From NCBI RefSeq assembly GCF_032062105.1, contig NW_026937682.1, positions 1-64,000 on the forward strand: DNA of 64,000 nucleotides, written 5' to 3'. The translations under genes and the position numbers were made by a program. Under the pieces are notes generated by a model that made no database searches, was not told the origin of the DNA, and saw only the letters and a list, made by a program, of their open reading frames with translations. The stretch is from Saccostrea cucullata. Lineage: Eukaryota. This document shows positions 6,810 to 13,426 of the stretch, piece by piece (positions within the stretch are counted from its first letter, which is position 1; every line of letters starts with the position of its first letter).

Positions 6810-6845
6810 AATGAACCTTCTGTTCACTGGACTGGCCTATTTATA
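6810..6845 (-). promoter_or_regulatory. TATAAA-N25-TCATT core promoter of the major capsid gene
   Basis: TATAAATA starting at 6845; Inr-like TCATT with its A at 6812; ATG at 6780. Confidence 0.7.
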
Positions 6846-6858
6846 CTCTCTCTCTCTC

Positions 6859-7371
6859 TCAGTCAAACACATCTAAATGACGTTTTCTTTTAGGAATTCC
6901 TCCTCCTTGTGTTTTCCTTTTTCTCTTAGGACCTCCTCGGGCTAACATAGGGGTCTTTTTTCTTCTTTTGTTAGTACCTCCTAGATTCATTCTTTGTTTC
7001 ACCATTCCCGAAGTATTTTTTAGAGCTTGTACTCTGTGAGTTTTGACTGCGTCTTTTAAAGATCTCTTATTTTCTAATACGTCTAATCCCGTTCTGGCAG
7101 CAGCAGTCAAGGCGTGTTTAGCTCCGGTTTTCAGTAAATCAGTAAAGAATCCTTCCCCTCTTTGATAGTTTTGGGGTGGATAATAGCCTGGTGGTGGTGG
7201 TGGTGGGGCTTGCTGTTGACCCAATAATCCTCCTACTAGATTGCTGACTAAAGGAGCTGCTACTTTAAATAGGGATCCTAAAAAACCGTGTCCTTTTTGA
7301 CGTAATAACCCTTTATGATAGACAAACTGTCCGTGTCCTCTTTGTCTCAGTAATCCTGGATGATACTGCAT
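6859..7371 (-). CDS. Basic virion core-like protein with QxGxG repeats and amphipathic helices
   Basis: RQRGHG, RQKGHG, YQRGEG and TQGGG motifs; helices GFLGSLFKVAAPLVSNLVGGLL and GFFTDLLKTGAKHAL; K/R-rich C-terminus ending DVFD; lies between the minor and major capsid genes. Confidence 0.75.
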   Translation of the reverse strand: MQYHPGLLRQRGHGQFVYHKGLLRQKGHGFLGSLFKVAAPLVSNLVGGLLGQQQAPPPPPPGYYPPQNYQRGEGFFTDLLKTGAKHALTAAARTGLDVLENKRSLKDAVKTHRVQALKNTSGMVKQRMNLGGTNKRRKKTPMLARGGPKRKRKTQGGGIPKRKRHLDVFD

Positions 7372-7390
7372 GGTTCATGTCTCTTGTTCA

Positions 7391-7426
7391 ACTGACCTTT
7401 ATATCCTCGGGGGACTTCCTTTTATA
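7391..7426 (-). promoter_or_regulatory. TATAAA-N25-TCAGT core promoter of the QxGxG core gene
   Basis: TATAAAAG starting at 7426; TCAGT with A at 7393. Confidence 0.7.
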
Positions 7427-7512
7427 CCCTTTACGGCTGAATACAATACAGACAGCAGACCAGACAAGCCACCACACCCAATAAGATGGAACACAATAAC
7501 GGTACACTCATC

Positions 7513-8490
7513 TCAGTATACTTTTCTAAAATGAAGTTTCACCACTGATTTGCCACTTACAAAGGGCATGGGTTGTCCTAAAGGAGTCATGATGTGAATC
7601 TCAATGGTATCGAAATGTTTTTTACTTAGTTTCAAATATTCCGCTCGAATGGGTTCCCATTTGGCTTGTTTTGAATCCTCCAAATGAAACGTACAAGGCA
7701 CCACTCTTAATAATTTCAAGGCATTGGAGCCTACCGTCTGGGGTTGAATCAAGTCACAATAGACATACATGGATTTCAGATTTTCATATAAATCCACAGT
7801 ATTGTTTCCCAAGTAACTAATGTTGATCCATTTGGTTATGTTTTCTGTATCCTTCTGAAGAATGACTTTCTGACTGTCCATGCCTAGCTTATAAGCTAGG
7901 GATGTGGGGAAACGAATGCATAAGGGAGTAAGCATTTTTTCATTGATTTCATACATTACTCGATCATAGGTCTCGTAATATACTAATTTCATAGATTTGT
8001 CTTCATTTCCCTCACTAAGGGTTTTCCATATTTTTTTCAATGATCTCTGTAGTCCTAGACTTATTTCCTCTGTTAAAGCCTTGGGGTGAACATAAGGCCC
8101 GGATCTGAAGTGAATTCTTCTAATTTCCATCTTGCTATCTAGTTCAACGAGTGCAGGCCGTTTAGTATGGGCCCAATCGAGCAGTACAGGACATTGACGT
8201 AATGGTATTGGGTCTAAGGTTTTCATTTTAAATCTGCCATAAACATTGGGGTTTTTGATATGGTGAGCAAAAGACTGAGGAACCAGGATGTCAAAATAAG
8301 CTTCCTCTTCTGTAATGTTTTTCAATGAATTGGGATACATCATTTCTGTTAAAGCCACTTCCCATTCTCCGTCGGTTAAATCCACTGTTTGTGGTAATAA
8401 GGTTTTAAATTGAGCGGTCGTATTGCTAGAAAAAGAGGTCATAGACCCATCACTGGGTAAAGTCATGTAAAACCCACTGCTCTCTGCCAT
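7513..8490 (-). CDS. Minor capsid (penton-like, Polinton PX) protein
   Basis: N-terminal FYMTLPSD..NTTAQFKTLLPQTVDL..EWEVALTE and C-terminal MYVYCDLI..VG..LLRVVP..FDTIEIHI..G..VVKLHFR. First ATG at 8490; the ORF-track start at 8496 is TTG. Confidence 0.85.
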   Translation of the reverse strand: MAESSGFYMTLPSDGSMTSFSSNTTAQFKTLLPQTVDLTDGEWEVALTEMMYPNSLKNITEEEAYFDILVPQSFAHHIKNPNVYGRFKMKTLDPIPLRQCPVLLDWAHTKRPALVELDSKMEIRRIHFRSGPYVHPKALTEEISLGLQRSLKKIWKTLSEGNEDKSMKLVYYETYDRVMYEINEKMLTPLCIRFPTSLAYKLGMDSQKVILQKDTENITKWINISYLGNNTVDLYENLKSMYVYCDLIQPQTVGSNALKLLRVVPCTFHLEDSKQAKWEPIRAEYLKLSKKHFDTIEIHIMTPLGQPMPFVSGKSVVKLHFRKVY

Positions 8491-8502
8491 GTTCAATTTA
8501 AG

Positions 8503-8538
8503 ACTGAGACCCTAAACCTTAGAACCTTTGTATTTATA
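8503..8538 (-). promoter_or_regulatory. TATAAA-N25-TCAGT core promoter of the minor capsid gene
   Basis: TATAAATA starting at 8538; TCAGT with A at 8505; ATG at 8490. Confidence 0.7.
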
Positions 8539-8654
8539 ACAACTTCTCTTTTTATATAGAGAGAAAAAAACTAACAACACTAGAATTTTGGTTTTTTTCT
8601 TTTTATTTTATTGATTCATAACAATAACAACAAGAACAAGAAACAAGAACATCA

Positions 8655-11731: not shown

Positions 11732-11741
11732 CTTTGAAAAC

Positions 11742-11777
11742 AATGAAGAGAAGTCTCTCATGTCACTCCCTTTTATA
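11742..11777 (-). promoter_or_regulatory. TATAAA-N25-TCATT core promoter
   Basis: TATAAAAG starting at 11777; TCATT with A at 11744; ATG at 11731. Confidence 0.7.
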
Positions 11778-11780
11778 GTC

Positions 11781-12700
11781 TTAAGGAGGGGCATACCCTC
11801 CGTGTTTGTCACTCTCGTGTTTATCTCTATTTTTCTCCCTGACATAAATTTTTCCACATTGTCGGCATTTATATCTCAGACCTTTAGGAAGTTGAGGGGT
11901 GGAGGCTGTCAAGGGTTGAAAACGTGTGATTTTAGGGACATGAATGGGAACTTTAATTCCAGGGGAGGGAATGCCCACATTCACTCGAGGAAACACTTCT
12001 AAATCGCTAGCTCTTTGACTCCCTATGGGTCCCATAGTACGATCCATTCTCAGTTCTGCTTGTTTCTTGAGTAACTCTCCTTTGGTCTTTTGTCTTTGTT
12101 CCTTATAATACTGATTGATTTCGTTTTTTAGACTTTCGGGCATGGCTTTACGTTGAGCTAGAGTTTGAGGGGTCCTTTTTACCGCCCCTGTTTTCTTGGG
12201 AGCTGTTTTCTTCTTAGGAGGGCTTTTCTCTTCTTAGGAGGGGCTTTTCTCTTCTTTTTTCTACTCTTTTGAGCTGCTCCTCCGACACGGACCATCCAAT
12301 CTGGAAACACTCTTTGTTTCTTATTATCGACTCTTACCACTACACTCTTTAAACGACGAACCCGTCGCTTTTTAGGACTATTCCATTTGAATAAATGACG
12401 AATGATGACTCCACCTAGAAATCCAGCTCCTCCGTGTTTTAAAATAGCCGTTTTCCTTTCTTCGTCACTAGCCGATTGATCGACAATGATCTTTAAATCT
12501 TGACGATGAAGATCGATAAACTTTTGAGTCAGTTTATTGATAGGTAAGACCCCTTTCATTAAATTGCGAGCTCCCATGGCAAACCAATTCAATAAGGCTT
12601 TACGCCCTAATTCGATTAAATGGGCTCGTTCGGTGGGATATCGTTCCCGCTGTAAACGTCGTAAGGTTCTCACTAATTTACTCTTGGCTGATGGAGCCAT
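11781..12700 (-). pseudogene. Basic core-like protein (paralogue of 11381-11731) + K/A/P-rich tail + C-terminal C2H2 zinc finger; split by a 1-nt deletion near 12222
   Basis: The second copy of a 21-bp repeat (AAGAGAAAAGCCCCTCCTAAG) lacks one C. Restoring it fuses ORFs 12179-12700 and 11781-12143 via KRKAPPKKRKAPPKKKTAPKKTGAVKRTPQTLAQRKAMPES. The C-terminus CRQC-x12-H-ESDK-H fits a C2H2 finger. Confidence 0.72.
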
Positions 12701-12711
12701 GATGAGAGTGG

Positions 12712-12747
12712 AATGACTCAGAAGAGTGGGAAACACTTTTATTTATA
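12712..12747 (-). promoter_or_regulatory. TATAAA-N25-TCATT core promoter overlapping the ATPase stop codon
   Basis: TATAAATAAAA starting at 12747 is also the ATPase codons Tyr-Lys-stop plus AATAAA; TCATT with A at 12714; ATG at 12700. Confidence 0.7.
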
Positions 12748-13383
12748 CTCTTGAGGCATGTGTATAGTCAACAATTCAAACATTCGACTTCTTAATCGGT
12801 ATTCGTCTGGGGTCTGGGGACTCAAATCCACGAGAAGATAACCGTGAGGTACCTGGGTGGCTTCTTGATAAGCAGACACCAAATGAGGCAAAGCTAGCTG
12901 ACGAATCAATACACTGATCTGAGATTTGTCTCTGGGATTTTTGAATAAGACTAAATAATGAGCATTCAAACTAATGGTGCGATGAGAGGCAGCTCGATCA
13001 AATAAATTCTGAGTGATGTAAATCACACTGGTATTCCGATGATGAGCTTTACGGGTAAACCAATCCACAATCGATTCGATGGCTTTTCCTCCCATCATGT
13101 CGTCAAAAATGAGTAAATGGGGCACACTCAAATTGGCTACTAATTTCTCGTCGTCTTCTGGAATATTTCGAATGAAAGATACCTTCTCTTTTAAAGAAGT
13201 GTAAGCGGGTTGCCATTCCCGATAACACCAGACGATCTTTTCGGGCCTGGGGGTGATCCAGTCTAGATTGTTCACTAATGTCTTGACGAATTCTGTTTTG
13301 CCCGATTTCGAGGGTCCAGCAACTACCATGGTAAATTCGTGTTTCAATTGAAAAGAAGGGAGGGGTGTCTCCTCGGAATACAT
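12739..13383 (-). CDS. A32/FtsK-like genome-packaging ATPase
   Basis: Walker A GPSKSGKT, Walker B LLIFDD, HHRNTSVIYITQNLF, RTISLNAHYLVLFKNPRD, GYLLVDLSPQTP..RLR. Start re-assigned to ATG 13383. Confidence 0.92.
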   Translation of the reverse strand: MYSEETPLPSFQLKHEFTMVVAGPSKSGKTEFVKTLVNNLDWITPRPEKIVWCYREWQPAYTSLKEKVSFIRNIPEDDEKLVANLSVPHLLIFDDMMGGKAIESIVDWFTRKAHHRNTSVIYITQNLFDRAASHRTISLNAHYLVLFKNPRDKSQISVLIRQLALPHLVSAYQEATQVPHGYLLVDLSPQTPDEYRLRSRMFELLTIHMPQEYK

Positions 13384-13390
13384 GTTGATC

Positions 13391-13426
13391 AATGAAAGAA
13401 AAGATGGGTTCAGGGTCTCATTTATA
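13391..13426 (-). promoter_or_regulatory. TATAAA-N25-TCATT core promoter of the ATPase gene
   Basis: TATAAATG starting at 13426; TCATT with A at 13393; ATG at 13383. Confidence 0.7.

Follow-up and report, generated by a model that had tools for sequence, protein, structure and literature searches.

The closest described counterpart of the promoters analysed here is the metazoan RNA polymerase II (Pol II) core promoter, made up of a TATA box plus an initiator of the Drosophila type (TCA+1KTY). A TATA box at -33 lies within the working range in mouse where no better-spaced start exists (passages of PMC1779604), and the Drosophila window, from -38 to -29, includes this position as well (passages of PMC2728527). 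Among viruses, the late gC promoter of HSV-1 (herpes simplex virus 1) has only TATA plus initiator, whereas the early tk promoter has upstream elements (passages of PMC6397523), and the early promoters of white spot syndrome virus (WSSV) and baculoviruses, with a TATA box and TCANT or CAGT, have been interpreted as indicating that host Pol II is used (passages of PMC1550435). Virophages and polinton-like viruses, a related virus group activated by giant viruses, have common promoter motifs, according to excerpts of the literature on them. The element studied here resembles animal Mavericks, or Polintons (adintoviruses), by its polB, rve integrase, A32-like ATPase, AGTAGT end and conserved gene order. 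It lies in a stretch of 64,000 nt of the oyster Saccostrea cucullata (contig NW_026937682.1, positions 1 to 64,000), the whole of which is hereafter called the window.

Maverick transcription in animals is little described. Our literature searches found no description of animal Maverick promoters, which older Polinton/Maverick papers, Repbase notes or supplements may mention; in the available portions of the texts, the word 'promoter' is absent from PMC8502044, PMC10748475 and PMC4028283 and occurs twice, in unrelated contexts, in PMC8097293. The interpretation that we regard as probable is that TATA-33-TCA(G/T)T is an ordinary host Pol II core promoter, and that the element times its genes via an upstream module, which accompanies the polymerase gene and several accessory genes and is lacking on the predicted virion genes. 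The core promoter itself is ordinary; the module-based two-class layout is a new, testable feature.

Core promoters of the element and their conservation

All positions are those of the whole window, and the genes of the element are on its minus strand (Table 1). A preliminary description of the window had listed seven pairs formed by a TATAAA and the A of a downstream TCAKT, and all their coordinates proved exact. Six pairs are exactly 33 nt apart (6845/6812, 7426/7393, 8538/8505, 11777/11744, 12747/12714 and 13426/13393), and the last one (9192/9158) is 34 nt apart, or 36 when counted from the overlapping TATATAAA at 9194. TCAKT is thus found at 33 nt from six of the 15 minus-strand (sense) TATAAA of the element and at 34 nt from a seventh, the binomial chance of 6/15 at 33 being 1.6e-9 after correction for 25 offsets, and none of the six plus-strand TATA[AT]A of the element has TCAKT at 20-44 nt. 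Over the whole window, TATAAAN{20,32}TCAKT has 15 matches, compared to 5.3 +/- 2.1 in shuffles. The motifs show TATAWAWR with the initiator consensus 28-34 nt further on, the arrangement by which a Pol II promoter of the TATA and initiator type is recognised in metazoans; they differ from the latter by a sharp mode at 33, the mouse optimum being 30-31, and the sites reported here are predicted from sequence.

As had been stated, the spacers are unrelated and do not reflect a simple duplication, the best pair having 11/25 matches (p=0.36); their mean similarity (7.5 versus 6.2 when shuffled, p=0.019) indicates a slight common bias only. The TATA box at 12747 is indeed made of the end of the upstream gene, namely the Tyr-Lys-stop of the ATPase, and it also contains AATAAA. 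The motif also fixes gene starts: the corrected starts previously implied for the ATPase and PW-like genes agree with those of other copies.

Conservation was assessed in 20 copies, i.e., the window and 19 fetched copies, one of which (C12609) is a near-duplicate with the same flanks; three loci with an ATPase of 45% identity and one fragment (C11754) were excluded from these counts. For six core genes, the 33-nt spacing is kept in 108 of 113 promoters, three others being at 32 and two being lost. Among distinct haplotypes at 33, the varying columns are 0/36 in TATAAA and 0/30 in the initiator, versus 51/138 in the spacer, 44/72 upstream and 26/54 downstream, a count that is partly circular because only haplotypes at 33 were used, five non-33 rows being omitted. 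In the loci with the 45%-identity ATPase, TATA-TCATT precedes the ATPase in two of three cases, at 32 and 30. The motif also stands at 33 before genes that are absent from the window, encoding a BIR/RING inhibitor of apoptosis (IAP; 6/6), orf225 (6/6) and a phosphatase-like protein (5/9). No own motif is present within 130 nt of PZ (0/19) or integrase (0/18), and likewise none for the protease. The spacing of the last gene's promoter ranges from 30 to 35 across copies, and in this family 33 is a mode rather than a fixed value.

A pyrimidine-purine step at offset 30 is found in 0/18 distinct promoters, versus 21/108 at offsets 24-29 (p of about 0.02, computed by hand), and mouse promoters with a TATA box at -33 have the same depletion at offset 30 (passages of PMC1779604). 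The seven motifs resemble ordinary, conserved core promoters of the Pol II type, and their spacing has within this family a sharp mode at 33 nt.

polB promoter and upstream module

The motif had initially been reported as missing before polB and as restricted mainly to packaging and structural genes, which had suggested a virus-like early/late programme. Its absence before polB is literally true of the window copy, in which TCATT is retained (A at 17205) and the TATA position 33 nt before it, at 17238, is non-canonical. A canonical TATA box occupies this place in other copies: polB starts were found in 15 copies, 13 of which have TATA and TCAKT at 31-34. Together with polB, the IAP gene (6/6) and accessory genes carry TATA and TCAKT, so that the core motif is not restricted to late genes. 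The early/late contrast arose because the window copy had lost its polB TATA box, a copy-specific loss. A two-class promoter layout does exist, but the division is not in TATA-33-TCAKT; it is in the DNA upstream.

When used in BLAST searches, the region upstream of polB was found to contain a block that also stands before accessory genes of other elements. The common words of this module are TGACGTCA, TGCTGACT and GCACACG; the first two would be bZIP-type motifs. The module was scored as present when at least one of TGACGTCA, TGCTGACT, GCACACG or GCACGTGC occurred within 330 nt of the ATG. On this basis, it accompanies polB (14/14), the last gene (12/12), the Cys-rich accessory gene (13/15), orf200 (6/7), rev142 (5/5) and the RING gene (1/2). 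It is absent, within the same 330 nt, from the ATPase (0/20), PW-like (0/19), PZ (0/19), integrase (0/18), orf155 (0/17), minor capsid (0/18), core (0/18), major capsid (0/19) and protease (0/15) genes. Promoter layout differs, in this post hoc comparison and with exceptions, between replication and virion genes. A spacing of exactly 33 is found in 9/10 non-homologous bare intergenic promoters versus 2-3/7 module-linked ones, according to a post-hoc tally.

Accessory gene cassettes differ among subfamilies (L207-L209, L227, L219). The Cys-rich gene and its promoter are located mid-element in some copies, and are divergent from polB, with one common module, in others. In one subfamily, a gene encoding a BIR+RING IAP lies between polB and the ATPase (L207:4420-4950) and has its own TATA-33 promoter, and in one copy (L039-L040, C13257), the accessory block is duplicated in inverted orientation close to the minor capsid gene.

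Spacing in host genes and distant elements

The -33 offset had been thought to need an element-encoded factor, a proposal that gained no support when other promoters were considered: a host Gypsy element is at 33, the peak in distant Mavericks is at 32, and a promoter of the family is at 30 in many copies. The Ty3/Gypsy element of the same genome has TATATAAG-33-TCAGT in both long terminal repeats (LTRs), with a weaker second TATA register that would give 31; this motif accounts for 25 of 100 rows among the matches listed (by eye), and the repeats are paired in 2/2 loci checked. One such element (L188:780-7817) has matching LTRs and a 1672-aa gag-pol frame with gag-pol domains by Pfam. The 30-nt form of the last gene's promoter represents 33 of the first 100 listed of 310 genome matches (by eye) in one of the genome-wide pattern scans.

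The host histone genes have spacings of 30 or 32 (H3) and 31 (H2B), the TCATTCATT of H3 giving an alternative of 34/36 if its second TCATT is used. Genome-wide patterns for host spacing are flat or have a broad 30-34 hump (repeats merged by eye) and are dominated by mobile elements; a post-hoc TCAGT excess at 32-34 in one genome-wide scan was absent from the two others and was discarded. HSP20 promoters have TATA boxes and no TCAKT at 28-35, and are uninformative. Literature searches for data on TATA-to-start spacing in oyster or across species found nothing usable.

Distant Mavericks were represented by metagenome loci that encode a related capsid-like protein, the best 80 of 252 being used. 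Their 153 distinct sense TATA boxes have 3, 3, 13, 6 and 2 TCAKT partners at 30, 31, 32, 33 and 34, respectively, over a background of 0.3 per offset, and 94 antisense ones have at most one partner per offset, some of the matches counted being homologous or in coding DNA. TATA plus initiator at 32 +/- 1 is thus widespread in Mavericks, 1-2 bases above the mouse optimum, and this may simply be the invertebrate host optimum. In a second distant element group (L045-L050), the integrase is followed by an ATPase fused to a zinc finger, the opposite strand carries a polB-like frame, and TATA-TCATT is at 30-32. Scans of viral contigs found no relatives.

Possible mechanism and alternative explanations

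If the core promoter is ordinary and timing depends on the module, host TBP/TFIID would bind both TATA and initiator, transcription starting at the A of TCAKT, and host bZIP-type factors bound to TGACGTCA/TGCTGACT would switch on the module-linked genes first. The bare promoters, which would sit directly behind the stop of the preceding gene, would depend wholly on TATA-initiator synergy, and this dependence could account for their tight geometry. Strong firing would require that templates be amplified or opened, in the manner of HSV-1 true-late promoters. Expression of PZ, integrase and protease would rely on read-through together with stop/start coupling, or on internal promoters. As in HSV-1, one gene class has a bare TATA box and initiator and the polymerase-type class has upstream elements; however, both classes have a strong initiator here, the viruses are unrelated, no ICP4-like factor was identified among the element proteins searched, and the likeness is one of promoter layout, read from sequence alone. 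In WSSV and baculoviruses, late genes have separate motifs, whereas here predicted virion genes carry TATA and TCAKT. Unlike those of virophages and polinton-like viruses, the oyster Maverick promoters resemble host nuclear Pol II promoters, and a giant-virus helper is therefore likely unneeded for their transcription; the evidence favours host nuclear Pol II over such a helper.

Several observations weigh against a timing role of the module. There are partial exceptions, as 2/19 copies of the basic gene and 3/6 of the IAP gene carry one motif, and the IAP, orf225 and phosphatase-like accessory genes are bare or nearly so. The integrase has no module though it is possibly early-acting. The module motifs were chosen post hoc from the polB region, the difference in 33 between bare and module-linked promoters reaches only p=0.035-0.10, and the column count is subject to the circularity mentioned above. 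Bareness may reflect compaction alone, because most of the DNA that precedes bare promoters is coding sequence, and the capsid and core genes owe their names to prediction. The TATA and TCANT layout of WSSV marks early, not late, genes (passages of PMC1550435), and one clade of 21 metagenome loci has no TATA-TCAKT enrichment. Finally, no start-site pile-ups were seen in two poly(A) runs, which are sparse (320 and 173 reads, on both strands).

All the promoters could alternatively be plain host Pol II core promoters without any timing role, the core genes being bare only owing to the compactness of the genome, with the modules serving as element-wide enhancers of every promoter. The same core motif before both gene groups, the existence of bare accessory genes and the size of the element, which at only about 20 kb would fall inside enhancer range, all agree with this explanation. 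We nevertheless consider it rather unlikely, as the module has been copied separately before at least four non-homologous genes and before no predicted virion gene, and separate copies would be unneeded if one enhancer served all. That late genes are selected by a factor which the element encodes and which reads a 33-nt geometry lying outside the host optimum, as first envisaged, appears improbable. The 9/10 non-homologous bare promoters at exactly 33 speak for it, as do the mouse optimum of 30-31 (passages of PMC1779604), the 30-32 of the host H3 and H2B promoters and the value of 32, likewise on the high side, in distant Mavericks; but polB, IAP and the host Gypsy LTR are also at 33, the family has the abundant 30-nt promoter form described above (33 of the first 100 listed of 310 matches, by eye), and the TATA hexamer is the plain host consensus. 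Furthermore, no transcription-factor match was obtained among 20 element proteins (Pfam), for PZ (fold) or for orf155 (Atlas), blanks that leave room for such a factor: the predicted folds of PZ (predicted local distance difference test scores of 59 and 69) had no match at E<=0.001, the best Z being 5.2, and orf155 had nothing in Atlas. The Cys-rich accessory protein has weak RING-like leads in Atlas (0.90, 133 shared features), and the RING gene behind TGACGTCA may, by analogy only, be a lead for an element activator.

Chance, or the recent duplication of one promoter, is very hard to credit, even though the DNA is AT-rich, the similarity among spacers slightly exceeds that of shuffles (p=0.019) and some accessory promoters are clearly paralogous. 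It is opposed by the p of about 1e-9, by the best spacer pair of 11/25 and by the strand-specific signal in distant elements, and, as regards the six sites at 33 nt, is refuted. Animal Mavericks could also run a true early/late cascade, in which bare promoters with a long TATA-initiator spacing (32-33 nt) would be weak with the host machinery alone and would be selectively activated, either by a protein of the element or through replication of its excised form; this is in our opinion unlikely. The two-class promoter map makes the question of such a cascade testable, and for most genes of this large, young oyster Maverick family the motif predicts transcription starts to the exact base.

Genes of the element and neighbouring features

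Table 1. Positions of the promoters, genes and upstream module of the Maverick/Polinton copy in the window.
Feature	Positions	Strand	Remarks
Maverick/Polinton copy	5626..17754	-	left end AGTAGT at 17754; broken off inside predicted major capsid gene; several frames broken
Upstream module before polB	17246..17413	-	TGACGTCA at 17246-17253, and tandem ~65-bp unit with TGCTGACT and CCGTGTGC
polB core promoter	17203..17238	-	TCATT retained (A at 17205), TATA position non-canonical in window copy; ATG 17174
polB	13549..17174	-	PF03175; fragmented in window copy; ATG 17174
TATA-33-TCATT before packaging ATPase	13391..13426	-	19/20 copies at 33
Packaging ATPase gene	12739-13383	-	ATG 13383
TATA-33-TCATT before basic ~300-aa PW-like gene	12712..12747	-	19/19 copies; overlaps ATPase stop and AATAAA
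Basic ~300-aa PW-like gene	ATG 12700	-	split in window copy
TATA-33-TCATT before PW-like gene (ATG 11731)	11742..11777	-	19/19 copies
PW-like gene	ATG 11731	-	likely head of stop/start-coupled run PW - PZ - integrase
PZ	10554-11384	-	in PW - PZ - integrase run
TATA-31-TCAGT inside PZ coding sequence	10779..10812	-	~220 nt before integrase ATG; possible internal promoter
Integrase	from 10557	-	in PW - PZ - integrase run
TATA-30-TCATT inside integrase 3' region, before 90-aa ORF	9532..9564	-	18/19 copies; coding overlap
90-aa hydrophobic open reading frame (ORF)	9212-9484	-	preceded by TATA-30-TCATT
TATA-34/36-TCAGT before orf155	9156..9194	-	17 copies: 11 at 34/36, 1 at 33/35, 1 at 35/37, 4 none
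orf155, 155-aa ORF	8655-9122	-	function not assigned by Atlas search
TATA-33-TCAGT before predicted minor capsid gene	8503..8538	-	17/18 copies
Predicted minor capsid (mCP) gene	7513-8490	-	name from size and position
TATA-33-TCAGT before basic predicted core-protein gene	7391..7426	-	15/18 copies at 33, 3 at 32
Basic predicted core-protein gene	6859-7371	-	name inferred
TATA-33-TCATT before predicted major capsid gene	6810..6845	-	19/19 copies
Predicted major capsid (MCP) gene	ATG 6780	-	identity inferred; profile search gave no confirmation

polB encodes a protein-primed polymerase matching PF03175 by Pfam, the integrase is retroviral-like (rve, PF00665), with a chromodomain attached in another copy, and the packaging ATPase is A32-like (PF04665). 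Size, order and conservation are the basis for the designations PW, PZ, core, protease and major and minor capsid, and profile searches gave no confirmation; Pfam, PHROG and PDB yielded no sequence match for the predicted major and minor capsid proteins or the protease. Among named homologues, those closest to the capsid-like protein come from Saccostrea oysters (84-90% identity). At least 150 ATPase matches are present in the source genome (150 of 404 candidates scored), and the oyster Maverick family is large and young.

The ATGs of PZ, integrase and protease overlap or closely trail the preceding stop. Such stop/start overlaps are seen at 11384 and 10557, and at the capsid-protease junction of other copies, which suggests that this eukaryotic element has polycistronic messages whose translation is coupled. 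For the possible internal promoter at 10812, conservation is weak evidence because the site lies in coding DNA. In the 22-nt leader of the core gene, an out-of-frame ATG at 7378 precedes the gene's own ATG, as it does in the other copies printed, and might correspond to leaky scanning or to a regulatory upstream ORF.

The contig runs are by nature unable to show transcription starts. In a metatranscriptome run, the predicted minor capsid gene is spanned, at 7508-8438, by one contig with a depth of about 60; this hints at one dominant copy, and DNA carry-over is possible.

The right end of the window copy is missing; right ends matching its AGTAGT left end are found in four other copies. At 17749 there is a terminal TATAAA-33-TCATA, which we do not regard as a general feature, since the 4/4 right ends seen lack it. 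Near the left end, an array of CGGAAGT words, presumably ETS-like, extends over 17590-17730, and there is none at the four right ends of other copies.

The broken capsid-like gene is adjoined by a pogo/Tc5-type DNA transposon at 2800-5471 (BrkDBD, HTH_Tnp_Tc5, DDE_1), with inverted arms at 2800-2844 and 5427-5471. Contig C12609 has the same layout as the window, with the transposon and the broken gene, and is likely a duplicate haplotype. A reverse-transcriptase ORF (RVT_1) at 29068-30414 is likely a remnant of a long interspersed nuclear element. The host flank contains large inverted-repeat pairs at 33697-38080, 41768-43145 and 50662-52921, which are likely non-autonomous DNA transposons, as well as 30- and 28-bp minisatellites.

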